Assembly (NCBI GenBank): GCA_963675785.1
Contig: OY776562.1
Span: forward strand, 1,678,893 to 1,742,892
Reading direction: 5' to 3'
DNA length: 64,000 bases
Source: Anaerolineae bacterium
GTDB lineage: Bacteria; Chloroflexota; Anaerolineae; UBA1429
The translations under genes and the position numbers were made by a program. This document shows positions 181 to 10,425 of this stretch, piece by piece (position 1 is the first letter of the stretch; the number at the start of each line of letters is the position of its first letter). The notes below the pieces were generated by a model. It was not told where the DNA came from. It searched no databases and saw nothing but the letters and a program-made list of their open reading frames with translations.

Positions 181-1263
181 TCAGCGGTCAGCACAAGCGA
201 TACACAAGTCGGCCCCGGCAATCACCGCGGCTACATCGGCGGTCTGCACGCCCGAAAGCAAGTGCGGCAGGCTGGCCAGGGTGGGCAAGGTTGGCGTGCG
301 CACTTTGACCCGCGCTGGCGTATCAGAGCCATCCGAACGCACATAGTAAAACAGCTCGCCGCGCGGCGCCTCTATGCGCGTGGTCACCTCGCCAGCGGGC
401 ACCCGCCGAGGAGCGCGCACTTGCACTTCACCCTCGGGCAGGCCGTCTAATATCTGATGGACGATTTTCAAGCTCTCGTCGATCTCGGCCAGACGCGTAT
501 GCGCCCGGCACCATACATCGCCGCCGGTGCCGGTAATCACTTGGAAATCCATTTCCTCATAGGCCAGGTAAGGCTGTTGTTTGCGGATATCCAGCGTGCA
601 GCCCGAAGCGCGCGCCGTGGGGCCTACCAGGCCAAGTCGGTGCACCAGATCGCCGCCCATCACCCCCAGTCGGCGGGTTCGGGCCTGAAAATTGCGGTCG
701 TGCAGCACCATATCGCGAAACAGCTTGAGCTGCTCCTCAAACTCGGCCAAGTTGGTTTGTACATAGCGCTCGTGGTCGGGTGTCAGATCGATGCGCACCC
801 CGCCGATGGAGGTAGCCGAATGGGACACGCGTCCGCCGGAGAGATCCTCCATCAGGTCGAGGATGATCTCGCGGTCGCGCCAGGCGTACATGAAAATAGT
901 GGTAAAGCCAATGGCCTCGGAAAGCACGCCCAACCAGAGCAGGTGGCTGTGGATGCGCTCTAATTCGCAAAGCAACATGCGAATGTATTGGGCACGGCGC
1001 GGCACCTCGATACCGGCCAGCTTTTCCACCGAGAGGCAAAAGGTGGTGGTGTGGGCTTGCGAACAAATACCGCAAACACGCTCGACCAGGTGCACATTCT
1101 GAATATAAGTGCGCTGCTGGGCCAGCTTTTCGATGCCGCGATGCACATAGCCGATGCGCAGATCGGCGCCCAACACGGTCTCGCCAGATACGCTCAGGTT
1201 GATGGAAAGGGGTTCTTTGAGCAAGGGATGTTGCGGCCCGATGGGGATACGAGTCGGCGTCAT
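181..1263 (-). CDS. Group 4 (energy-converting, membrane-bound) [NiFe]-hydrogenase large subunit, NuoD/HycE/EchE/MbhL family
   Basis: N-terminal L1 motif RVCGICSQAH (RxCGxCxxxH) and C-terminal DLCIACADR (DxCxxCxxR): both NiFe-ligating CxxC pairs are present, unlike NuoD. The rest resembles NuoD. Confidence 0.85.
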   Translation of the reverse strand: MTPTRIPIGPQHPLLKEPLSINLSVSGETVLGADLRIGYVHRGIEKLAQQRTYIQNVHLVERVCGICSQAHTTTFCLSVEKLAGIEVPRRAQYIRMLLCELERIHSHLLWLGVLSEAIGFTTIFMYAWRDREIILDLMEDLSGGRVSHSATSIGGVRIDLTPDHERYVQTNLAEFEEQLKLFRDMVLHDRNFQARTRRLGVMGGDLVHRLGLVGPTARASGCTLDIRKQQPYLAYEEMDFQVITGTGGDVWCRAHTRLAEIDESLKIVHQILDGLPEGEVQVRAPRRVPAGEVTTRIEAPRGELFYYVRSDGSDTPARVKVRTPTLPTLASLPHLLSGVQTADVAAVIAGADLCIACADR

Positions 1264-1697
1264 GCGTTCTCCTCCTCATTCAACAAAGGCGGTGGTCCCT
1301 GCCAGTCGTCGGGCAACAGCAGCGGCTTGATCTCCCCCCGGCCCTCGATGGTGACGCCCAGCATCTCGTGCACCTCGCGCTCGTACCAGTTGGCTACCAG
1401 CATAATCGGGGTCAGGCTGGGTACGCTCAGATCATCCATCGGCAGCAACAGGCGCAGGGTAATGCCACAGCCGCCGTAAAAGTGGTACATCAGTGAGACG
1501 CCCTGGGGCAGGCGTTGGCCAGTGATGGTGGTCAAGTGGTGCACATCTGCCGCCACCAGGGCTCGCGCCGCCTCGATCAGATTCTCACGGGGCAGGTCAT
1601 AGCAAATCTCGTTCTGGGGGCCCTCACCGCGTTGGGCACCGCATTCAACAAGCGCAGTGTCGATGGCGGCGAGATCAGCAGAAAGCAGATCATCCAT
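1260..1697 (-). CDS. NuoC-like / hydrogenase 30-kDa subunit (HycE N-domain, EchD/MbhK-like)
   Basis: 145 aa, NuoC-family sequence (…ANWYEREVHEMLGVTIEG…). 4-nt overlap with the downstream large-subunit gene. Confidence 0.75.
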   Translation of the reverse strand: MDDLLSADLAAIDTALVECGAQRGEGPQNEICYDLPRENLIEAARALVAADVHHLTTITGQRLPQGVSLMYHFYGGCGITLRLLLPMDDLSVPSLTPIMLVANWYEREVHEMLGVTIEGRGEIKPLLLPDDWQGPPPLLNEEENA

Positions 1698-2116
1698 CAG
1701 ATACCCTCCAACAGTTGGGAAATGGCCTCGATGACGGCCTCGGGGCGTGGCGGGCAGCCGGGAACATACAAGGCCACCGGCACCACCTGATCGATACCGC
1801 CCAGCACGTTATAGCTGGCCTGCACAATGCCACCCGAACAGGCGCAAGCGCCAATGGCCACCACCCAACGCGGCTCGGCCATCTGCTCGTAAATGCGCCG
1901 TAGCGGGCGCGCTGACTGGCGCGTCACCGGCCCGGTGGTCAGCAGAATGTCGGCGTGACGCGGCGAGGCCTCTTTGAGGATTCCCAGCCGCTCAATGTCA
2001 TAGCGGGGCGTCAGCAAGTCGAGAATCTCGATATCGCAGCCGTTACAGCCGCCGGTGTTGTAATGCAGCACCCAGGGCGATTTACGCCGCGCCCAGCGCA
2101 CCACGCGGTCGATCAT
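1697..2116 (-). CDS. NuoB-like hydrogenase small subunit (4Fe-4S), MbhJ/EchC/HycG family
   Basis: Cys ligands GCNGCD, GACACSGG, PGCPP. The ORF track extends to 2152, but an internal ATG at 2116 (MIDRVVRW…) gives an ATGA overlap with the upstream gene's stop; either start is possible. Confidence 0.8.
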   Translation of the reverse strand: MIDRVVRWARRKSPWVLHYNTGGCNGCDIEILDLLTPRYDIERLGILKEASPRHADILLTTGPVTRQSARPLRRIYEQMAEPRWVVAIGACACSGGIVQASYNVLGGIDQVVPVALYVPGCPPRPEAVIEAISQLLEGI

Positions 2117-2451
2117 GATTCCTCTCCCTCGTGGGTTAGTACGTCCACGCAAAGCCCGGTGCCCAGCAAAAAGGCCGCTGCCAGCACCCAGGCGTTGCCC
2201 TCCAGGGGCAGCATAGCTACCACCAGTGCGGCCATGTGTACCACCACAAACATCAAACCCAGCCTGAAATAACGTTGGTAAGAGAGCTCCATCTCCTCAG
2301 GCACTAACTCTTGCCCCCCGGCGTAAGGCTCTATCTTGCCAGGTTCATCATCTCGACCGCGAGGGGCGATCCTGCCGGACCAGCGATAGAGGCCATAGGC
2401 CAACAATCCGAAAAGGGCCAGCGCCAGTGGGGGGCTTGTCAACCAATCCAT
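2113..2451 (-). CDS. NuoA-like small membrane subunit
   Basis: 112 aa, hydrophobic, with a conserved-looking PYAGGQE loop (compare NuoA YECG). Sits directly before NuoB as in nuoAB. Confidence 0.5.
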   Translation of the reverse strand: MDWLTSPPLALALFGLLAYGLYRWSGRIAPRGRDDEPGKIEPYAGGQELVPEEMELSYQRYFRLGLMFVVVHMAALVVAMLPLEGNAWVLAAAFLLGTGLCVDVLTHEGEES

Positions 2452-2452
2452 G

Positions 2453-3895
2453 TCAACCTCCCAAGGCCAACAAGGAGGCAGCTGCTTTCGTAGCAGCTAC
2501 CATCACCGGGGTGGGCCAGACGCCCATCCCCAAGGCCATAACCGCCATTAGCACCATGGGCACCAGCATCCAGGCGGAAACAGGAGCATGCGGCCCCTCA
2601 ATGCGCTTGTGGGTGAGCAGTCGACCCACCAGGGGCACGTAATAGCCCAAGCTAAGCAGGCTGTTGAGCACAAAAAGCACCACCACCGTGCCACTCAGCC
2701 AATCCCACTGGCGCAGACCGCCCTGCAAGAACAGCCACTTGCTGATAAAGCCGTTGAGTGGTGGCACACCGGCCAGCCCCAGCAATGCCACAGTGAACAC
2801 TACCGTCGTGGCCGGTGCGCGGTCCATCAACCCGTCCAGATCAGAGAGCATGGTGCTATCCATGTAATAGTGACAAACGCCTTTGCTGAGAAAAGCCAGC
2901 CCCTTGAGCAGCGCGTGGGCGGCAATGAGGTAAAAAGCCGCGGCCAGCATCTCCACATGCCCGCTGACCAAACCCAACCCCAGGGCCGCGGCCACATAGC
3001 CGGTCTGGGCAATGGAGGAATAGGCCAACATCCGCTTGCCGTAGGTTTGCACCAGGGCCATGCTGTTGCCCACCGTCATGTTGAGCACGCCCTCGACCAC
3101 CAGCGCCCAACCCAAAATTCGCGGCTCAATGCCCAAGCCCAGCCCTACGCGCACCAACACCAGCAGATTGACCTGGATGAGCACACCAGAAAGTAGCGCG
3201 CTGATGCTGGATGGCGCTCGTCCATGAGCATCGGGTAACCAGGTGTGCGCTGGCACCAAGGCTGCCTTGACGGCGTAGCCGAGCATCATCAGCACGGCGC
3301 CAAACAGGCCCCAGGTGCCCATGGCAGCAGCACCACTAGTCAAAGCCAGGCTCCCCGACTGGCGATAGACATAGCCCAGGCCAAAGAGGATGAGCATGGC
3401 TGCAGATGAGCCCATGATGGCGTACTTGAAACCAGCCTCCACGGCGGTATCCGTGGTGCGGCGAAAGGCCACCAGCACATAAGAGCAGGCGCTGGCCAGA
3501 ATGGTAGCCAGATAGAGCGTGAAGAGATCGACGGCGCAGAGCATGGCCAGCAGACCAGCGCACATCAGCAGCACCAGTGAATAGTAATAACGATAGCGCT
3601 TATCCTCCGACATATAGCGCCCCGAGTAGACGGAGATTAGCAGACCCAGGCCCAACACGATGACGCCCATAAAACGCGATACATCGTCTATAACAAAAGT
3701 GGCCGCCGTACCCTGGCTGGAGGTCCAAGCTAGGCCGTTTGTCCAGCCAAGCAGTAGGCGTCGCAAGGCCACAGCAAACACAGCGGCTGTAAGCAGGGCC
3801 ATCAAGCCATTACTGCTGATGAGGCGGCTGACGACATAGAGCGATACCGCGCCCAGCGCTAGTACGACCAGGGGAGCCAACAGGGGATCAGACAT
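2453..3895 (-). CDS. Antiporter-like membrane subunit (NuoN/NuoM/MrpD family)
   Basis: HTWLPDAHGRAPSSISALLSG motif typical of the MrpD/NuoLMN family. The ORF track start is 3946; an internal ATG at 3895 (MSDPLLAPLVV…) abuts the upstream stop at 3897. Confidence 0.75.
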   Translation of the reverse strand: MSDPLLAPLVVLALGAVSLYVVSRLISSNGLMALLTAAVFAVALRRLLLGWTNGLAWTSSQGTAATFVIDDVSRFMGVIVLGLGLLISVYSGRYMSEDKRYRYYYSLVLLMCAGLLAMLCAVDLFTLYLATILASACSYVLVAFRRTTDTAVEAGFKYAIMGSSAAMLILFGLGYVYRQSGSLALTSGAAAMGTWGLFGAVLMMLGYAVKAALVPAHTWLPDAHGRAPSSISALLSGVLIQVNLLVLVRVGLGLGIEPRILGWALVVEGVLNMTVGNSMALVQTYGKRMLAYSSIAQTGYVAAALGLGLVSGHVEMLAAAFYLIAAHALLKGLAFLSKGVCHYYMDSTMLSDLDGLMDRAPATTVVFTVALLGLAGVPPLNGFISKWLFLQGGLRQWDWLSGTVVVLFVLNSLLSLGYYVPLVGRLLTHKRIEGPHAPVSAWMLVPMVLMAVMALGMGVWPTPVMVAATKAAASLLALGG

Positions 3896-3896
3896 G

Positions 3897-5378
3897 CTAG
3901 GCACCTCCGGGAATGAGCAATCCGGCGGCGGCACTGCCCCAGCCATAGAGCAGGCCGGGAAACAACCCCAGTATGAGCACCAGCAGCACAGCCGCCGCAG
4001 TAGACCAACGCATGGCCGCTGGCACCTGTTGTACGGCCATATCCAGCGGGGCTTGGCCGCTGTTTACGCGCACAACAAGCCATACCGCGTACATGGTCGT
4101 AGCCAGCGGTGCCAACAGTTCCAGCACGGCCAACAAGCTATAGGGCGCAGCAAACCCGGCCAGGATGATTTGCAATTCGCCGTAAAAGGCGGCAAAGGGC
4201 GGTAGCCCGGCAATAGCCATGGCGCCCAGTGCCAACCAAAGGCCAGCCCCGGGCAATACCCGGGCCAGTCCACGAATCCGCTCAATATTGCGCCGCGAGG
4301 TGGCCAGCATGATCCAGCCCACGGCCATAAACAGCGCTGCTTTGATCAAGCCGTGGGTAACCACCTGCATCACGGCGCCGGTCAGGCCGGCCTCACTCAG
4401 CGTACCGATGGCAAAGAGCACATAGCCCATCTGGCTGACGCTGGAATAAGCGACGATGCGTTTGATGTCGTGTGAAGAGATGGCCATCAGGGCGCCGTAT
4501 ATCTGTGACACCAAACCGGCGATCATCAGCGGCACTTGCAAGGGCTGTAATGCCGCCACGCCCAAAATGCCCACGGCAAAACGCATCATGCCATAGGCAC
4601 CCATGCTGAGCATAGCCCCAGCCAACATCACCGTCACCGGCATGGGAGCGATCGAGTGGGCATCGGGCAGCCAGGTGTGCAATGGAAAGACTGCCAACTT
4701 GACGCCAAAGCCCAACACCAACAAACCAGCCAACCAAGTGAGCGTCGTGGCAGGAATTCCTGCCGCCATAGCCTGGCCAGTCATATCGGTGGTACCAGAG
4801 TGAACCGCCATATAAGCCAGCACGCCCAGCACCGTCAGCGAGCCAAGCTGGGTATAGAGCACGTACTTGAACGTAATGCGCCCAACCTGCTCGCCACTGC
4901 CCCACCACAAGAGCAATAAGCTGGAGGCTACCAGCATGAGTTCCCAAAAGAGGAAAAAGACCAGCGCATCGTGGGCCAACACGGTGCCCACCATACTGCC
5001 GCAAAAGGCAGCCATGAGCGCATAGACGACGTGCCCGCGTGGAAAGCTTTGTAAATAGCCCAGACCGTACAGGCTGGCCAACAGTGTTACGCTCAGCACG
5101 GTGATGGCAAAAGGCCGGGCCAGGGCATCCAGCACCAGGCTAAAGGATGGCCCGTTCTGAATCCAAGGCAGTGAGAAGGAGCTTGCAGGTGCGACAATCA
5201 CTAAAACGAGGGTAGCTCCCACAGCGGTACAGGTCGCCACACCGGCGATGCGCGTCCGCTTGGTCAGCCGCGCGGGCAAGACGAAACTGATCAGGCTTGC
5301 CGCCCAGGGCAGTATCAGAATGAGAGCGAGCATCCAGGGCAAGGTTAGCCTCCTACAATAACGAAAATACAGCAACAA
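3897..5378 (-). CDS. Antiporter-like membrane subunit (NuoM/MrpD family)
   Basis: HTWLPDAHSIAPMPVTVMLAG motif; polytopic, 493 aa. An alternative start at 5333 is possible. Confidence 0.8.
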   Translation of the reverse strand: MLLYFRYCRRLTLPWMLALILILPWAASLISFVLPARLTKRTRIAGVATCTAVGATLVLVIVAPASSFSLPWIQNGPSFSLVLDALARPFAITVLSVTLLASLYGLGYLQSFPRGHVVYALMAAFCGSMVGTVLAHDALVFFLFWELMLVASSLLLLWWGSGEQVGRITFKYVLYTQLGSLTVLGVLAYMAVHSGTTDMTGQAMAAGIPATTLTWLAGLLVLGFGVKLAVFPLHTWLPDAHSIAPMPVTVMLAGAMLSMGAYGMMRFAVGILGVAALQPLQVPLMIAGLVSQIYGALMAISSHDIKRIVAYSSVSQMGYVLFAIGTLSEAGLTGAVMQVVTHGLIKAALFMAVGWIMLATSRRNIERIRGLARVLPGAGLWLALGAMAIAGLPPFAAFYGELQIILAGFAAPYSLLAVLELLAPLATTMYAVWLVVRVNSGQAPLDMAVQQVPAAMRWSTAAAVLLVLILGLFPGLLYGWGSAAAGLLIPGGA

Positions 5379-6666
5379 AAGCCAGCGCTAGTACAATCAG
5401 GCCGGCCATCCAGGCCAGATTGGCCCGCAGCTTGCCCGTGTGCAGGCGGCGCAAACGGCGCCCTACCTCCAATGCTGAACGCTGTACATTGACAAAACCC
5501 TTTTCAAGGACATGCTCATCGATGGCGCTGGCCGCACGCGAGGCGCTCTCGGTCAAATGCCAAACCCAGGCATTGAGTGGCTCTAGCAGCCGCGTCTCGA
5601 CGAATAAGGCCGCAATCGAAAGCCTATCCCATCTTGTGTTCAATGGGGCGTTATCAGCGTATTCGCCCCGAGCCTCGTCCACAACTCTTGGGGCAGACAG
5701 GATCATCAATACCCCTCGCAGCGGCATGAAAGAATAGAGATAGGCATATGGCCAGCCCAGAGGCACAATCACCAGCGCAAGCGCCCCATGTGCTACTTCC
5801 AAATGGTGCAAGCGCAACCTGCTTTCGGCTCGAACAGCGCAAATCAGAGCCCAGATCATGATTCCGGCACCGGCCACAACCAAAGGAGTCGTCAGGTGCA
5901 GTGCCTGAATGCCGCCCTCCAAACGATAGAGCAAATAGGCGCCCAACAGAGGTAGGCCCGCCGTAGCCGCCGACCATCGTTCAGGGCTAGCGATCTCGCC
6001 TGCAACGGCTAACCAGCGATCAAATGGATAGAGGCCCAGCTTGATCCACACTGCCAACAGGCCCATCAGTACTGCCAGCCAGGTGGTACCATCGGCTGCC
6101 TGGGCAGCGGCAGCCAACATGGGGGAGATGAGCAGCGTGTCGTGGGCCTGCCAGAGCACGATGATAGCCCCCAGCAAAGCCAGATCGCCCAAACGCAAAG
6201 TGAGAAAAGAGCCGACTAGATCGCGCCAATTGCCGCGACGTACCGTCATAACCAGCGTGGCCAAAGCAGCCGCCTCCAGAAAGGCATAGCGGTAGAGAAA
6301 ATGGTTGACGTTCAGCGCAGCAAAAGAGGCAGCCAGCAAGATCGGTGCAGCCAAAGCCTGCCACCAGGCCGACGCAGGTTGATCGGCATCTTGCCAAAGC
6401 AGCAGGGCATAGCCCAGAATGGCCAGCCCGCTCAACTCGGTGCCGCGCTCATCCAGGGCAATCACTCCCGGCTCGATCCAGGGAATCCAGCCCAGATTGA
6501 TCGTTGAAGCATCGCGGTGAACTAGGGCCACCAACGCAGCCAAAGCAACAGCTACCGCCACCATACGCAATAGCCGCGCGCGTTTGGCTGTAACCGGAGC
6601 AGGCAAGGTACGCAGCAGTCCTCCTGCCAAAGCCAGTGCCAGCGTTGCCATGATGAAATAGATCAT
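5353..6666 (-). CDS. Divergent third antiporter-like/polytopic membrane subunit (NuoL/MrpA-superfamily-like, degenerate motif)
   Basis: 437 aa, very hydrophobic, with a degenerate FDRWLAVAGEIASP in place of HTWLPDA. Its position between the MrpC-like and MrpD-like genes fits an antiporter-like subunit. Confidence 0.5.
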   Translation of the reverse strand: MIYFIMATLALALAGGLLRTLPAPVTAKRARLLRMVAVAVALAALVALVHRDASTINLGWIPWIEPGVIALDERGTELSGLAILGYALLLWQDADQPASAWWQALAAPILLAASFAALNVNHFLYRYAFLEAAALATLVMTVRRGNWRDLVGSFLTLRLGDLALLGAIIVLWQAHDTLLISPMLAAAAQAADGTTWLAVLMGLLAVWIKLGLYPFDRWLAVAGEIASPERWSAATAGLPLLGAYLLYRLEGGIQALHLTTPLVVAGAGIMIWALICAVRAESRLRLHHLEVAHGALALVIVPLGWPYAYLYSFMPLRGVLMILSAPRVVDEARGEYADNAPLNTRWDRLSIAALFVETRLLEPLNAWVWHLTESASRAASAIDEHVLEKGFVNVQRSALEVGRRLRRLHTGKLRANLAWMAGLIVLALAFVAVFSLL

Positions 6667-6986
6667 CCGCGTAGCGTCCTGAGGTCATCCACCTCACCAG
6701 AGGGGAAATAGCGCAAAGCGTTGATAGTAAGCGCTAGAACGATGGCCAACACGATGGTCTCGGCCACCAAGGCAGAGACCACCAGACTTTGCACTAACTC
6801 CAAGTCGCCCTGTACGCGGGCGGCATCCACAAAGTTGAGCAGGGCGCCCTGCAACATGATGTTGAGACCGATGACCTGTTTGAGCAGACGACGACAGGTA
6901 AGAAGACAGAGGAAGCCAATCAAGATCAGCGCAGCAGAGAGTAACGGGTTGACGATATCTAGCAGAGGATCGGGTAAAGACTGCAT
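6663..6986 (-). CDS. NuoK/MrpC(MnhC)-like small membrane subunit
   Basis: 107 aa, three predicted TM helices; VIGLNIMLQGALLNF resembles the NuoK/MrpC signature. Confidence 0.65.
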   Translation of the reverse strand: MQSLPDPLLDIVNPLLSAALILIGFLCLLTCRRLLKQVIGLNIMLQGALLNFVDAARVQGDLELVQSLVVSALVAETIVLAIVLALTINALRYFPSGEVDDLRTLRG

Positions 6987-6989
6987 GAT

Positions 6990-7220
6990 CTAACTCTCCT
7001 CGTCACGGCCGGGCAGCAAAGCGCGAATGCCCAAGGCCCCGGCAAACATGAGAGCCAACTGAAACAAGAGATCGGGCTGGCGGGATGTCCAGAGGGTGAA
7101 AAAGGAGGCTTCTTCACTCGAGGATTTTTCTCCCAGTAAAATGTAAAGGCCTGCCCCAAGCACCAGCAAAAGGATCACGCCGGTTCTGCCCAGAAGCAGG
7201 TCAATGAGTTTGGACTTCAT
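6990..7220 (-). CDS. Small hydrophobic Mrp/Mbh-type subunit
   Basis: 76 aa, two hydrophobic segments; in the operon with 3-nt spacing. Confidence 0.4.
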   Translation of the reverse strand: MKSKLIDLLLGRTGVILLLVLGAGLYILLGEKSSSEEASFFTLWTSRQPDLLFQLALMFAGALGIRALLPGRDEES

Positions 7221-7246
7221 CGTCTCCCCACAGTTTTATGGCCGGG

Positions 7247-7528
7247 TTAAACCCCGGGGCTATTGTCACGGGTCTCTTGTTTGCGCCGTTTGCCGATGGA
7301 TTCGGCCAAGCTAAGAGCGATGATAAAAAGCGTGCTCACCAATCCAGCGCCCACAGAAAGCTGAATAGCAGCAGCATAAGGCGCCTGCAGTAGGTAGAAC
7401 ATCAAAGCCAAGCCGCTGCTGGCCACAATGAGAGCCCCAGCTGCTCGGATGAGTTCCCTGGTACGAACGGCTACAATCGCCGCCGTCAGGACAAGTGCTG
7501 CTGCTACCAGATATGCTGTCGTCATCAC
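7247..7528 (-). CDS. Small hydrophobic Mrp/Mbh-type subunit (MnhB/MbhD-E-like)
   Basis: 93 aa, three hydrophobic segments; first gene of the membrane-arm block. Confidence 0.4.
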   Translation of the reverse strand: MMTTAYLVAAALVLTAAIVAVRTRELIRAAGALIVASSGLALMFYLLQAPYAAAIQLSVGAGLVSTLFIIALSLAESIGKRRKQETRDNSPGV

Positions 7529-7674
7529 TCACTCTGTTGTATTGAAGAAAAAACCGCGTCGGTCTGCCATGGCCGGTGCGGTCTATCTTTTATATATCAT
7601 AGCATAGCAGGCGGCAACAGGCAACCAACATGAAAAAAGCGCCCCGCAACAGCGGGGCGCTCAGGAAAACAGGA

Positions 7675-8454
7675 CTATCTACAACAGAGTGTGCCTTCAC
7701 GGGGACAGGCGCCGGTGCATTCCATGCAGCGAATGCATTCCATGCTGCGCTCTACCTCGGTAGATGGGTCAATATCCATGGGACAGATGGCTTCACAACG
7801 CCCGCAAGAGACACAACTGGTCTCATCGGCCTTGATGCGCCAACGAGAGAATAAGTTGGTGACGGAGAGCACCGCCCCCAGAGGACAAGCATAGCGGCAC
7901 CAAAAACGCTCAATAGCGATGGACCAAATCAGGAATACGACGACCACGCCAGCACCCAGGGCACTGCCTACATTCATGGTGAACAAGGTACGGTAGGGAC
8001 AAAAGGCCATGAGGGGCGGCACCACAGCGGTGATGCTGGCATAGATCACCCAGCCCAGCACCAGCCACTTGACCCAGCGCATAGGACGGTCGAGCCAACG
8101 CGGCAGATGAATGGGCAACCAGTGCTTGCGCCCACCGGTAATGCGCCGCAAAAAGCGGCTAATCCAACCCTGTACCGTGCCCAAGGGGCAAAACCAACCA
8201 CAGAACACCCGACCAAAGAGAACCCCAGAGATCAACACTAGCCCCAGCAACACCAAATTGATGATGCTGGTATAGCGTAAAACGGTGCCTGAAGTAAGAA
8301 AAGTTGAGATCAACTCAATGCCACCCATGGCGCAAATGGCGTCAAAGGAAGCAATGAGCCCCAGTGAAAAGGCTATGCCGATGCCGATGGCAATGAGTAA
8401 GCCAATACCCTGCGAGATGCGGCGGTAGATCTGAAGGCGATTCTTGGCCGCCAT
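7675..8454 (-). CDS. NapH/MauN/CcoG-type membrane-bound 4Fe-4S polyferredoxin
   Basis: CGWFCPLG and CRYACPLG motifs in the TM region; C-terminal ferredoxin motifs CVSCGRCEAICP and CIRCMECTGACP. Confidence 0.75.
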   Translation of the reverse strand: MAAKNRLQIYRRISQGIGLLIAIGIGIAFSLGLIASFDAICAMGGIELISTFLTSGTVLRYTSIINLVLLGLVLISGVLFGRVFCGWFCPLGTVQGWISRFLRRITGGRKHWLPIHLPRWLDRPMRWVKWLVLGWVIYASITAVVPPLMAFCPYRTLFTMNVGSALGAGVVVVFLIWSIAIERFWCRYACPLGAVLSVTNLFSRWRIKADETSCVSCGRCEAICPMDIDPSTEVERSMECIRCMECTGACPREGTLCCR

Positions 8455-9281
8455 CAGTGACTGCCCCTGCCGGAGCCACTGGAAGAACTGGAAAGCTGCT
8501 CATAGAGTGCGGGCTCGGAGTAATCACAATAGCCATTGCCGTTGGAATCGACATAGTCATGGCACAAGCCGGGATAAGGATCCCAAACCTGCCCTTTGGG
8601 ACAGGCTACTTGCCCAGTGACGCTGGTATCGACGGTGGAATCGGATGTCACAGCAGGCACGGCGGTTGCCGTCGCTGTTGCGACCGCAGTTGTGGCCGTT
8701 TCCTCGATCAAAGTATCTGATGATTCTTCGGGCTCAGACAGGTCGCAAATGGCGTTGTTGTTCAGATCGCAATAGCGATTGCACTGACCCGGGAAGGGAT
8801 CATTCAATATGCCAAAAGGACAAGCAACCACAACAGCAGCAGTCGCCGTTGCTTCGGCGGTAGCCTCAGCAGTTGCGGATGATTCTGTTGTTGCATCCGG
8901 TGTAGCCGTGGCCATTGAATCAGCCGCAGGTTCGGAATAGTCGCAATAGCCGCTGCCGGTGGTATCCACGTAATTGAGGCACTGGCCGGGGTAGGCATCG
9001 TACTGTAATCCAAAGGGGCAAGTGGAGACGAAACTGGAATCCACAGTTACCGTTGCAACAGCCGCTGCCGCAGCCGTCGTGGCGCTGGATGATTCTATGC
9101 GGTCGCACAATGCGTTGCCATTGGCATCGTAACAGGCAGCACAGGGGCCAGTGCAAATGCCATCAGCCGAAATGGGGCAATCGCTCACGATGTAAAGTCC
9201 ACCCATGGCTCCGGTAGCAACCACGCCTCCGGCAAGCACCAGGAACTGTCGGCGGTCGAGTTTTCGTTTCTTGGGGACCAT
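8454..9281 (-). CDS. Tat-exported Cys-rich repeat protein (four copies of a ~31-aa CP-x-G…PGxC…D-x-N-G-x-G-x-CD-x-SEP module); novel
   Basis: Twin-arginine motif KRKLDRRQFLVLAGG. Modules: CPISADGICTGPCAACYDANGNALCD, CPFGLQYDAYPGQCLNYVDTTGSGYCDYSEP, CPFGILNDPFPGQCNRYCDLNNNAICDLSEP, CPKGQVWDPYPGLCHDYVDSNGNGYCDYSEP, separated by Ala/Thr/Ser linkers. Start chosen at ATG 9281 (MVPKK…), which has AGGAAGGG upstream; the ORF-track start 9314 has no RBS. Confidence 0.65.
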   Translation of the reverse strand: MVPKKRKLDRRQFLVLAGGVVATGAMGGLYIVSDCPISADGICTGPCAACYDANGNALCDRIESSSATTAAAAAVATVTVDSSFVSTCPFGLQYDAYPGQCLNYVDTTGSGYCDYSEPAADSMATATPDATTESSATAEATAEATATAAVVVACPFGILNDPFPGQCNRYCDLNNNAICDLSEPEESSDTLIEETATTAVATATATAVPAVTSDSTVDTSVTGQVACPKGQVWDPYPGLCHDYVDSNGNGYCDYSEPALYEQLSSSSSGSGRGSH

Positions 9282-9398
9282 TATACCCTTCCTGTGTATG
9301 GTTGGATAAAGCATATTAGATGACTATAGTATAAGGAATAAATGTTCGTGAAATGTTAAGAGTCAATCAGGATGTTGCATAGTTAAAGCTGTTCTTAC

Positions 9399-9445
9399 AG
9401 AGCATCTCCGGGAGGGCAACCAGAGGTTGTTCCCGGAGATGCTCT
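9399..9445. promoter_or_regulatory. Perfect 15-bp inverted repeat (AGAGCATCTCCGGGA…TCCCGGAGATGCTCT) with 17-nt spacer: candidate operator or structured RNA element between the anti-sigma gene and the hydrogenase operon
   Basis: Read directly from the sequence. No convincing U-tract on either side, so it is not a classical intrinsic terminator. Confidence 0.4.
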
Positions 9446-9494
9446 ATTTACTGCTGTGAATCAAGGGACAAGGTGCAGAATGAGCACATCCTCA

Positions 9495-9782
9495 TCAGAG
9501 GGTTTGGAGGGCGACGAGCAATGCGGTAAATTCCCTGCGGCAATCCGGGCAGGAAGCCAGATGCTGCGCCACTCGCGGCATAGCCTCGTCCGCCGAGAGC
9601 CCAGCCAATGTGAGTTCCGCATAGCGATCGACTTGTGCCAAACATTCGTCGCAGGTCAGCTCGTCGTTTGGGGTTTCCAAACACCGCCTAACAAGGTTCT
9701 TGAGTGCGTCCAAATCCATCTGCCCTATCTCCCCTATGTCATCAACGATAGGGTCAGAGGCGAAATTCTTACGAAAAACCAT
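9495..9782 (-). CDS. Zinc-binding anti-sigma factor (ZAS/zf-HC2 type, RsrA-like), cytoplasmic
   Basis: 95 aa, no TM segment; CDEC…HLASCPDC gives a C…HxxxCxxC arrangement like RsrA. Overlaps the ECF sigma gene by 14 nt. Confidence 0.65.
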   Translation of the reverse strand: MVFRKNFASDPIVDDIGEIGQMDLDALKNLVRRCLETPNDELTCDECLAQVDRYAELTLAGLSADEAMPRVAQHLASCPDCRREFTALLVALQTL

Positions 9783-10425
9783 TCAGGATTTCCTCAGCCG
9801 ATATCCCCGTGGCCAGCAGTGTATCGCGCAGCTTGACCCGAGCGTCATGGACAAGTTTATACAGAGCATTGCTGTTGGTATCCATACTTGCCGCCACCTC
9901 GGCAACGGGAATACCCTGCAAATGTACAGCCAAAAGCGCTTCACGCTGGCGCGGTGAAAGCTCTTTCAGAGCCTGGCCTAATGTATTGAGTAGATCATCC
10001 TGTACAGTGCGCTGCTCCGGATCAGGGGTCGAAATGCTCAAACGGGCAATGAGCGCCGGAAAATCATCACTCCGTTCGGCCTCTAGCGGAACATCGCGCC
10101 AACGCATACGGCGCAGCTCGCTATAGACGGCGTGCACGGTTATCTTGGTCGCCCAGGTGGTAAAACGCGCCTCGCCGCGATAGGTATCAATGTGTTCGAT
10201 GATGCGCAACAACGAATCCTGTATCAAGTCTTCGAGGTCGGCTTCGGTAAGGGGTGTATTGGCAAAAGCCCTGATCATGCCCCGCAACAAAATGACACGC
10301 AGATCCTGAATGGCCATAGCTTGCTGAGGTACACCAGCCTTGAGTTCGGCCACCCAGTCCGCATCGCTCCGTTCCGGCATTGAACCGGCTTCGAGGGACG
10401 CCCTCTGCATGTCATCCCTTTCCAT
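9769..10425 (-). CDS. ECF-type RNA polymerase sigma-70 factor
   Basis: Sigma-70 region 2-like (DLIQDSLLRIIEHIDTY…FTTWATKIT) and region 4-like (LSPRQREALLAVHLQGIPVAEVA) segments. Confidence 0.8.
   Translation of the reverse strand: MERDDMQRASLEAGSMPERSDADWVAELKAGVPQQAMAIQDLRVILLRGMIRAFANTPLTEADLEDLIQDSLLRIIEHIDTYRGEARFTTWATKITVHAVYSELRRMRWRDVPLEAERSDDFPALIARLSISTPDPEQRTVQDDLLNTLGQALKELSPRQREALLAVHLQGIPVAEVAASMDTNSNALYKLVHDARVKLRDTLLATGISAEEILNGFS

Follow-up and report, generated by a model that had tools for sequence, protein, structure and literature searches.

The nearest described systems are built around NapH-like and DUF4405 proteins, which are widespread conduits for electrons across the membrane and whose known outside partners are flavinylated domains, NapG (which contains four clusters), and cytochromes. 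NapH-like proteins act as transmembrane electron conduits and usually carry or adjoin an extracytosolic FMN-bind domain (PMC8238504), and DUF4405 has been shown experimentally to be a heme-b membrane cytochrome (PMC11334425). In the flavinylation-associated systems, either conduit is fused to or adjoins a small extracytosolic domain that takes up electrons (PMC8238504; PMC11334425).

We analysed a gene (the target gene) in a 64,000-nucleotide stretch of DNA from an Anaerolineae bacterium, referred to as the window. The locus resembles NapG-NapH in that a Cys-rich protein with Tat-type export is encoded next to a membrane protein of four helices carrying two CX3CP and two [4Fe-4S] motifs, and the exported protein has four modules, compared with the four clusters of NapG. 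However, the target protein has no CxxCxxCxxxCP motifs and no Fer4 family match at E ≤ 1, and its modules are spaced by disordered linkers. Nor are napA, napB, or napC present around it, and the neighbour is NapH-like only, scoring well under the NapH cut-offs (81.9 vs. 213 bits). This neighbour further differs from E. coli NapH in two outer-loop Cys, C41 and C152, which are invariant in 13 NapH-like partners and absent from the E. coli protein. The same two conduits as in the flavinylated systems recur in the family described here, but the extracytosolic domain is MJ0753_N, no FMN_bind, ApbE, or flavodoxin (including Flavodoxin_4) match was found in the target or its neighbours, and any cofactor of MJ0753_N would be a metal centre instead of a covalent flavin. 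The same ~30-aa module occurs in MJ0753 of Methanocaldococcus jannaschii, whose orthologues (P0099 and L031) are matched by the module profile and likewise adjoin a NapH-like gene. MJ0753 consists of a single module that follows a Sec-type leader and precedes an unrelated C-terminal domain, whereas the target protein consists of a twin-arginine leader, four modules (one of them a partner-specific subtype), and nothing else.

The two-gene cassette and its hydrogenase neighbourhood

The minus-strand ORF encodes a 275-aa protein with four ~30-aa Cys/Asp modules, 15 Cys in total, joined by Ala/Thr/Ser-rich linkers (Table 1). Its start codon is the ATG at 9281, with AGGAAGGG upstream at 9286-9293, and gene callers picked the same start for P0001, a protein 99% identical to the target; an alternative in-frame ATG at 9314 would add 11 residues. 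Orthologues at 37-43% identity share the architecture, and in their alignment the RR pair and every module Cys and Asp are invariant, so that the ORF is conserved in the way its original description had called for. The gene is real, and by its sequence it encodes a secreted, modular, Cys-rich protein. An exact-sequence look-up of this protein matched no record, and no other module-type or DGDGxCD-type gene was found elsewhere in the window. An Rfam scan of positions 7400-9900 returned no riboswitch or leader, its two sub-threshold matches being the terminator hairpin. The full-length AF2 model, built from a nine-sequence alignment, was uninformative (pLDDT 36.5). A reading of the target as a RiPP precursor was dropped, the maturase being absent and an export signal present.

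Table 1. Positions of the cassette, its modules, and flanking signals in the window.
Feature	Position	Strand	Basis
Promoter-like site before the hydrogenase cluster, TTGCCT-17-TATGAT with TG; boundary, outside the unit	7596..7624	-	Predicted
Intrinsic terminator closing the two-gene unit, 11-bp stem with 9 GC pairs, then UUUUUUCAU	7637..7662	-	-26.8 kcal/mol, z = -4.16
NapH-like membrane polyferredoxin, two CX3CP and two CxxCxxCxxxCP motifs	7675..8454	-	Fer4_5, TIGR02163, motifs
Target gene: exported protein, four MJ0753_N (PF27309) modules	8454..9281	-	ORF, 99%-identical P0001, orthologue alignment
Module 4, canonical, aa 227-257, 3 Cys	8511..8603	-	CPKGQVWDPYPGLCHDYVDSNGNGYCDYSEP; AF2 pLDDT 79.9
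Module 3, canonical with one extra Cys, aa 154-184, 4 Cys	8730..8822	-	CPFGILNDPFPGQCNRYCDLNNNAICDLSEP
Module 2, canonical, aa 88-118, 3 Cys	8928..9020	-	CPFGLQYDAYPGQCLNYVDTTGSGYCDYSEP
Module 1, 5-Cys variant CPxSxxGxCxGPC...CDR, aa 35-63	9093..9179	-	CPISADGICTGPCAACYDANGNALCDRIE
Twin-arginine leader or membrane anchor, aa 1-34, DRRQFLV then hydrophobic helix	9180..9281	-	RR invariance, AF2
Shine-Dalgarno-like AGGAAGGG, 4 nt 5' of the target ATG	9286..9293	-	Sequence inspection
Promoter-like site 5' of the target gene	9323..9352	-	Consensus match only

The stop codon of the target overlaps the start codon of the NapH-like gene (TGATG), and the two genes are paired again in 19 related loci, ranging across taxa as far as Methanocaldococcus from Chloroflexota; both observations confirm the NapH-like neighbour as a true partner. 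Its product matches Fer4_5 (E 1.6e-17) and, below the cut-off, TIGR02163 (E 4.9e-23). A GC-rich terminator hairpin with a U-run sits 3' of the NapH-like stop codon. As read from gene order and signals, the target and the overlapping NapH-like gene are a conserved, self-contained two-gene cassette.

The original prediction took the target for the first gene of the hydrogenase operon; in this view it would encode a dedicated periplasmic accessory subunit of the adjacent group 4 [NiFe]-hydrogenase, coupling hydrogenase turnover to a periplasmic acceptor. The target does share its strand with a 12-gene cluster of Mrp/Mbh type that lies directly downstream of it in the window and in L001 extends past the window start into NuoH-like and NuoI-like genes, and the hydrogenase large subunit retains all four Ni-Fe cysteines (RVCGIC..., DLCIACADR). 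However, a strong intrinsic terminator and a promoter-like site intervene between cassette and cluster, and in relatives the downstream place is occupied by two-component regulators. Hydrogenase genes were found near the cassette in none of 119 related loci, some of them with 4-7 kb of downstream flank, and because of this absence the hydrogenase link is unsupported. The target is no conserved component of the hydrogenase next to it, and we regard a role as a hydrogenase accessory subunit as very improbable.

The MJ0753_N module and its predicted metal site

The module, which had at first not been recognised as any described domain, is in fact carried in Pfam as PF27309 (MJ0753_N). This family is assigned to P0001 and to 21 of 21 sequence relatives, and the membership of the target follows from these precomputed matches. 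Local Pfam and NCBIfam scans of the target returned only sub-threshold TAT_signal and EF-hand matches, and a word-index homologue search with a 41-aa profile returned only nine short “hypothetical” proteins. The module profile recovers the Methanocaldococcus MJ0753 orthologue P0099 (E 6.5e-13) and matches 983 clusters at 50% identity, whose carriers are anaerobic by lineage name (Anaerolineae, other Chloroflexota, methanogens, Atribacterota, Caldisericota, Thermodesulfobiota, and CPR). Judged by these profile matches, the module is an already catalogued but functionally unstudied family; searches of the literature for PF27309, MJ0753, MJ0753_N, and the NDPYPG/DPYPG motif found nothing relevant to function.

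When searched against 1.84 billion proteins, a 31-position module profile scored P0001 at 172.6 bits (E 1e-46) over four stretches, a regularity far above chance. The core C-P-x-G...D-P-Y-P-G-x-C...Y-x-D-x-N-G-x-G-x-C-D-x-S is matched by modules 2-4, and to that extent the regular four-module pattern first noticed in the protein stands, whereas module 1 is a divergent, though recognised, subtype outside the pattern. Likewise, only modules 2 and 4 have the three Cys first counted per module; module 1 has five and module 3 has four. Structure prediction of one module, proposed as a check, gave a fairly confident AF2 model for module 4 (pLDDT 79.9), but the fold is almost without regular secondary structure and had no match in the PDB, nor was any structural match found for the module family. 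Searching PDB sequences with this profile yielded nothing beyond EF-loop look-alikes (E ≥ 0.16). A confident model with little secondary structure and no PDB fold match is typical of a metal-organised mini-domain.

Among 224 distinct modules, a set defined by the C-terminal half only, 180 combine three Cys with an Asp at a fixed position (-4). A further 42 variants lack the Asp and have a fourth Cys at or beside its position (25 at -4 and 17 at -2), and the remaining two matches are DGxCD-type repeats instead of full modules. We interpret this Asp/Cys swap as the mark of a metal site with four ligands, next to an acidic loop of EF-hand type. Interchange of Asp and Cys ligands is known in Fe-S proteins, such as at Asp14 of Pyrococcus furiosus ferredoxin, and at the [2Fe-2S] ligand that is Asp in SdhB and Cys in FrdB. 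Like these proteins, the module has one position that alternates between Asp and Cys and three fixed Cys; in contrast to them, its spacing C-x12-C-x11-C fits no known cluster motif, and its site is a predicted one only. We infer that the modules bind metal, the likeliest candidate in those Chloroflexota forms that are exported by Tat being Fe or an Fe-S centre. A reading of the CP dipeptide as a heme-regulatory motif was dropped, as the CNRGC subtype is without it.

The target leader contains the motif DRRQFLV (DRRQFLVLAGGVVATGAMGGL), which fits S/T-R-R-x-F-L-K with a moderately hydrophobic h-region after it. R10 and R11 do not vary across nine orthologues, and the AF2 model places a helix at aa 10-26. 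Tat export as originally predicted is supported by the motif and its invariance, with HMM scores under their cut-offs (PF10518, TAT_signal, 16.4 vs. 22.7 bits; TIGR01409, 13.5 bits vs. 16.7). The further proposal that Tat export implies a cofactor-loaded passenger holds in part: RRxF[L] lies upstream of the modules in 98 of 156 module proteins, but plain Sec-type leaders are found on the Methanocaldococcus protein (the MJ0753 orthologue) and on many members from archaea, Atribacterota, Caldisericota, and CPR. Members exported by Sec could not receive a cytoplasmic cluster. Their leaders speak against an Fe-S cluster inserted in the cytoplasm as the cofactor of the whole family, and in favour of a simple ion that binds once the protein has been exported.

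As had been suggested, the D-x-N-G-x-G-x-C-D stretch is indeed similar to a Ca-binding loop: EF-hand_1 matches 29 of 91 modules below threshold, and the PDB sequence matches are an S100B loop and a lanthanide-binding tag. Other sub-threshold Pfam matches among the 91 are EF-hand_6 (11), TSP3_bac (4), and Excalibur (1), and on the target itself EF-hand_1 reaches 16.8 bits, below its 25.4-bit cut-off. In modules 2 and 4 the loop, D-x-[TN]-G-[SN]-G-Y-C-D-Y-S-E, matches the 12-residue pattern with ligands at 1, 3, 5, 7, 9, and 12 and Gly at 6. The general form D-x-[ND]-G-[DNS]-G-x-C-D-x-S-E shares Gly 6 and Glu 12 with EF-hand/DxDxDG loops (including those of Excalibur and bacterial TSP3). It differs from them in that the AF2 module model has no flanking helices, every Pfam score is sub-threshold, and position 12 (Glu) varies while Cys 8, Asp 9, and Ser 11 are invariant.

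With such a loop, the module could instead be a structural, Ca2+-binding, disulfide-stabilised surface spacer or adhesion unit (comparable to bacterial TSP3, dockerin, or Excalibur) with no redox role. The EF-hand-type matches, the basic RGG tails and Ala/Thr/Ser/Pro linkers of the module proteins, which are typical of surface proteins, and the Sec-exported members, which must fold outside the cell, are all consistent with it. We nevertheless consider it improbable: the three Cys of a canonical module are an odd number for disulfides, and Asp or a replacement Cys in 222 of 224 modules is what one would expect of a shared ligand position, not of a disulfide pattern. Stand-alone proteins consist of modules and linkers only and so have no cargo to dock, all of the Pfam matches are sub-threshold, and the family is essentially limited to redox membrane partners and anaerobic lineages.

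Membrane partners and candidate functions

A NapH-like or DUF4405 protein is fused to the module or encoded beside it in 37 of 39 genome loci, for which all DUF4405 subtypes served as queries, and in 64 of 80 metagenome loci. In the genomes the partner is DUF4405 at 33 loci and a NapH-like gene at four, the two loci with neither being on truncated contigs; in the metagenomes the corresponding numbers are 50 and 14, with neither at 16. A direct fusion of MJ0753_N to NapH was found in none of 180 proteins. The module subtype co-varies with the type of membrane partner: the module-1 subtype occurs in 17 of 19 NapH-linked and none of 83 DUF4405-linked loci, while the CNRGC variant occurs in 23 of the 83 and none of the 19. 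This match of subtype to partner and the Asp/Cys swap supply exact residues and protein pairs for experiments.

The cytochrome part of the DUF4405 fusions is without Cys in 15 of 30 cases, and in seven of these 15 the three Cys of the module are the only ones in the protein. Such a module would be served by heme alone, which points to a one-electron metal site and argues against a thiol-disulfide relay of the DsbD/CcdA kind, in which reducing equivalents would travel from the outer-face Cys pair of the NapH-like protein, via the module Cys, to substrates in the envelope. That outer-loop Cys pair and the ZAS-like (HxxxCxxC) anti-sigma factor upstream in the window are what such a relay has in its favour. 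It is hardly likely, however: heme b is a poor disulfide reductant for the fusions lacking Cys in the membrane domain, the modules have no CxxC motif, and Asp, the majority residue (180 of 224), cannot stand in for Cys in a dithiol relay.

Starting from the observed anatomy, family membership, partner coupling, and Asp/Cys swap, we tentatively favour a reading, with close to an even chance of being correct, in which the modules are tethered extracytoplasmic metal-thiolate units, with electrons reaching or leaving them by way of the membrane partner. The twin-arginine leader would export or anchor the target protein, and four small independent modules would be displayed outside the membrane on flexible Ala/Thr/Ser linkers. 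Each module, predicted to have no hydrophobic core, would be organised by a four-ligand metal-thiolate site made up of Cys1, Asp8 or a fourth Cys, Cys14, and Cys26, and the flanking acidic loop D-x-N-G-D-G-x-C-D-x-S-E is probably a site for Ca2+ or a second cation. Module 1, right after the anchor, probably docks from outside onto the NapH-like protein, which has two subfamily-specific outer-loop Cys. The cytoplasmic [4Fe-4S] clusters of the NapH-like protein may then feed the modules. Outside the membrane, the modules would either accept or donate single electrons, or hold a metal ion and reduce it, taking the place that flavinylated FMN-bind domains, NapG, or cytochromes occupy in other NapH-like/DUF4405 systems. 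Which way the electrons flow, and what finally accepts them, are points that we infer. Against this reading, long flexible linkers are unusual in an electron wire, the cassette encodes no electron acceptor or catalytic partner, and position 12 (Glu) of the EF-like loop is not invariant.

A bolder version, which we put forward as speculative and rather doubtful, is that MJ0753_N is an unrecognised minimal (~30-aa) extracytoplasmic redox cofactor domain, with Fe or Fe-S on a Cys3Asp or Cys4 site beside a Ca-type loop. It would replace flavinylated FMN-bind domains and c-type cytochromes in strict anaerobes, forming a “beads-on-a-string” relay from NapH-like/DUF4405 proteins into the envelope, with subtypes tuned for docking to each conduit. 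The family, with roughly a thousand clusters at 50% identity that come mainly from little-studied anaerobes (Anaerolineae, methanogens, Atribacterota, Caldisericota, and CPR), would be a fourth, metal-thiolate type of partner for these conduits. Modules with redox activity would rank among the smallest cofactor domains known and represent a new way of moving electrons through the envelope.

The metal-ligand swap evidence behind the favoured reading could serve equally for metal buffering or handling of a metallothionein- or CusF-like kind, in which the role of the modules would be to sequester a metal ion such as Cu, Fe, Zn, or Cd or to present it. The NapH-like protein would then do no more than keep the thiols or the metal reduced, and the cassette would belong to an envelope metal-stress response instead of an electron-transfer chain. 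An OmpR-type regulator and a HAMP histidine kinase (BaeSR/CusRS type) lie beside the cassette in three loci (L011, L015, and L016), which also encode another secreted protein, one with Asp/Cys/His-rich “FVDxDGDGxCD” repeats; in the window the cassette comes after an ECF sigma/anti-sigma pair, and the multicopy, linker-separated layout suits capacity over catalysis. However, the regulators best match generic envelope-stress families, with none above an equivalog cut-off and no metal-specific NCBIfam family, and the near-obligate attachment to a heme-b or Fe-S conduit (37 of 39 genome loci) would be unexpected in a passive buffer. A P-type ATPase with an HMA domain lies near the cassette in L006 and speaks for metal handling, but it is the one case of a metal-ATPase neighbour. 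We hold buffering to be unlikely. Modules that bind metals only would still point to an uncharacterised, reductant-coupled metal-handling system.

A conserved four-module protein in a catalogued family

The target gene is preceded by AGGAAGGG at 9286-9293, upstream of its ATG at 9281, and its start is called at the same position in P0001, a 99% identical protein from a 179-kb metagenome contig. The N-terminus of the encoded protein is MVPKKRKLDRRQFLVLAGGVVATGAMGG, its four modules are separated by Ala/Thr/Ser-rich linkers, and its C-terminus is a Ser/Gly/Arg tail. The original count of three Cys per module holds only roughly: modules 2 to 4 match its consensus, but module 1 has five Cys and module 3 an extra one (15 in total). 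In alignments, the RR motif is retained by orthologues at 37-43% identity, together with the module-1 subtype, canonical modules and a basic tail; the target gene is real, conserved and modular.

A Pfam scan of the target against a local copy returned only TAT_signal and EF-hand matches, all sub-threshold. PF27309 (MJ0753_N), however, is a precomputed match on every homologue in a large protein collection, and therefore the module, initially not recognised as a described domain, is already catalogued. We found no paper on PF27309, MJ0753 or the motif, and NCBI labels family members as "hypothetical" or "DUF4405 domain-containing". We condensed 20 modules into a 31-position profile and searched 1.84 billion representative proteins with it; it matched P0001 in four stretches (172.6 bits, E 1e-46), and 983 clusters at E <= 1e-3 or 235 at E <= 1e-10. 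Among one-per-species genomes, carriers include 23 Chloroflexota (Ardenticatenales, Thermoflexia, Anaerolineales), 5 methanogens or other archaea, and members of Atribacterota, Caldisericota, Patescibacteria, Thermodesulfobiota and a few other groups, which we take to be mostly strict anaerobes. Judged by its nearest relatives, the organism of the window most likely belongs to the Chloroflexota. The target is a distinctive four-module Tat form within this catalogued but functionally blank family.

Many stand-alone module proteins (P0023-P0029, P0058, P0064 and others) end in an Arg/Gly-rich basic tail (e.g., QRRRGRGRGQR), of which SGSGRGSH in the target is a weak version. Speculatively, such tails might retain the proteins on anionic cell-wall polymers or minerals.

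Features of the target, its surroundings and related loci
Feature	Location	Strand	Description
Target gene	window 8454-9281	-	275 aa
Module 1	aa 35-63 of target		CPISADGICTGPCAACYDANGNALCDRIE, 5 Cys, distinct subtype
Module 2	aa 88-118 of target		fits original consensus
Module 3	aa 154-184 of target		fits consensus, one extra Cys
Module 4	aa 227-257 of target		fits original consensus
NapH-like partners with predicted outer-loop Cys	window 7675-8454; related loci L011, L014-L016, L031, L053-L066	- (window)	
Group 4 [NiFe]-hydrogenase/Mrp-antiporter-type cluster	window 181-7528	-	12 genes, downstream of cassette
ECF sigma factor and overlapping 95-aa anti-sigma-like gene	window 9495-10425	-	just upstream of cassette
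Very stable hairpin, 17 + 5 bp	window 9404-9447		between anti-sigma-like gene and target's promoter-like site
"FVDxDGDGxCD" repeat proteins	L015:3282-4181, L016:470-889, L011:3090-3737		beside cassette and two-component system
530-aa secreted protein	L031:6127-7719		Methanocaldococcus sp. 28A, upstream of MJ0753 orthologue

A two-gene cassette and neighbouring regulatory genes

The target stop codon overlaps the start of the gene for a 259-aa NapH-like protein (TGATG at 8452-8456), which contains two CX3CP and two ferredoxin-type motifs, matches Fer4_5 (E 1.6e-17), and scores 81.9 bits against TIGR02163 napH, whose cut-off is 213 bits. A NapH-like gene likewise follows the closest relatives in 19 loci, as well as the Methanocaldococcus MJ0753 orthologue, which bears out the proposed partnership.

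The downstream cluster is a genuine group 4 [NiFe]-hydrogenase/Mrp-type cluster with MbhD-like, NuoK-like, three antiporter-like, NuoB-like, NuoC-like and NuoD-like genes, and its large subunit retains the RVCGIC and DLCIACADR ligands. In related locus L001, it runs past the position of the window start, adding NuoH-like and 2x[4Fe-4S] NuoI-like genes. The target was originally placed first in this operon, and it could accordingly be a hydrogenase accessory subunit. However, an 11-bp hairpin (9 GC pairs) is located 13 bases past the NapH-like stop codon, with UUUUUUCAU after it (7662-7637; -26.8 kcal/mol, z = -4.16) and a promoter-like site between it and the first hydrogenase-cluster gene, and none of 119 module loci (0/39 genome and 0/80 metagenome loci) has a hydrogenase subunit adjoining the module gene, making an accessory role very improbable. 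Hydrogenase adjacency is unconserved, NapH-like pairing recurs, and the neighbouring regulators are of envelope type; the unit therefore appears to be a self-standing cassette of two genes, controlled by regulators of that type, and not the start of the hydrogenase operon.

In L011, L015 and L016, genes for an OmpR-type regulator and a HAMP histidine kinase come after the pair, and a secreted "FVDxDGDGxCD" repeat protein accompanies it; no such protein was found within the window. This repeat corresponds to the second half of the module only, with one Cys each, in proteins with basic RGG tails; the module profile also matched stand-alone proteins of this type (P0072, P0074, P0160). In the window, the cassette is preceded by genes for an ECF sigma factor and a small anti-sigma-like protein. 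The latter carries HLASCPDC (HxxxCxxC, ZAS-like), has no transmembrane segment or Pfam match, and may be a soluble anti-sigma factor that senses redox state or zinc. The intervening hairpin (-48.5 kcal/mol with flanks, z = -5.7) lacks a clear U-run on the minus strand and could therefore be either a terminator or a regulatory element.

Putative metal site and membrane partners

With modules defined by their C-terminal half only (G-x-C-x2-Y-x-D-x6-C-D), we examined the 13 upstream residues in 224 distinct instances. The first Cys is at -11 with Asp at -4 in 180, while Asp is absent in 25 with Cys at -8 and -4 and in 17 with Cys at -10 or -12 and at -2. Apart from the remaining two, which are DGxCD-type repeats rather than full modules, none of the 224 lacks both Asp and a replacement Cys, and the additional Cys of the CNRGC subtype coincides exactly with the Asp position. 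This swap likely marks one ligand position, shared by Asp and Cys, in a four-coordinate metal site. A fold based on disulfides alone is difficult to square with it, since canonical modules have three Cys, and a structural Ca/disulfide surface module is distinctly unlikely. The second half of the module forms a good 12-residue EF-hand-type loop, with PDB sequence matches to the S100B loop and a lanthanide-binding tag and sub-threshold EF-hand_1 matches in 29 of 91 modules, supporting the originally noted resemblance of the D-x-N-G stretch to calcium- or metal-binding loops and suggesting a second, hard-cation site. An AF2 model of one module (pLDDT 79.9) has essentially no helices or sheets and matched no fold in the PDB, consistent with a metal-organised mini-domain whose fold is not yet solved.

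Using all DUF4405 subtypes as queries, we found DUF4405 fused or adjacent in 33 of 39 genome loci, a NapH-like gene in 4, and neither in 2, both on truncated contigs; the 80 metagenome loci divide into 50, 14 and 16 (the last mostly short contigs). Family-wide, the module almost never occurs without a partner. Experiments have shown that DUF4405 binds heme b, and it is proposed to carry electrons across the membrane (PMC11334425). For NapH-like proteins, a role as transmembrane Fe-S conduits is proposed, and most of them carry or adjoin an extracytosolic FMN-binding domain (PMC8238504). By analogy, MJ0753_N would therefore fill the architectural position of the external electron-accepting domain in two unrelated types of conduit, the cassette being a variant of this extracytosolic electron-transfer theme.

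The module could alternatively be a thiol relay. However, the cytochrome portion is Cys-free in 15 of 30 DUF4405 fusions, 7 of which contain only the module's three Cys. Judging from these sequences, the module there can only be served by heme, which favours a putative one-electron metal centre and leaves a thiol relay quite improbable. Module subtype also follows the partner: the module-1 type (CPxSxxGxCxGPC...CDR) is present in 17/19 NapH-linked and 0/83 DUF4405-linked loci, the CNRGC type in 0/19 and 23/83, and neither was ever found with the other class, which argues for direct, specific contact. Thirteen NapH-like partners have two invariant Cys (FDAxCPFGG and PFCPYRTLF) in predicted outward loops, whereas E. 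coli K-12 NapH has neither; this placement is presumed from positive-inside reasoning and the published NapH topology. FDAxCPFGG echoes the CPxG start of the module itself.

Our leading, still tentative, interpretation is that the modules would be tethered outside the membrane as a metal-thiolate array, which would pass electrons to or from the NapH-like conduit, or keep a metal ion in place to be reduced, with module 1 as the docking unit. A reductant-coupled metal buffer is unlikely.

Export routes and other neighbours

Tat export was taken to imply a cofactor-loaded passenger, which holds in part. RR is invariant across orthologues, and RRxF[L] precedes the first module in 98 of 156 module proteins, a count that takes in an internal S/T-RR-x-F-L ahead of the last helix in DUF4405 fusions. 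Ordinary Sec-type leaders ending in AW[DN][DN]-C occur instead in the Methanocaldococcus protein and in many members from archaea, Atribacterota, Caldisericota and CPR. An Fe-S cluster built in the cytoplasm therefore cannot serve as cofactor throughout the family, which leaves room for a simple ion such as Fe that binds after export, or for a difference between lineages. The internal motif before the last transmembrane helix (P0008, P0009, P0012, P0014-P0020 and other DUF4405-module fusions) suggests that Tat translocates the folded C-terminal module once Sec has inserted the cytochrome, similar to the Sec-then-Tat arrangement described for some actinobacterial Rieske proteins.

In L003, L006 and L008, the direct neighbour of the DUF4405 gene encodes a small protein (99-133 aa) that has a single N-terminal hydrophobic helix, matches no Pfam family, and may be a third conserved component of such loci. 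The 530-aa secreted protein of L031 has a C-terminal part that, on visual inspection, may be ferritin-like (DUF2202-type EExxH motifs).
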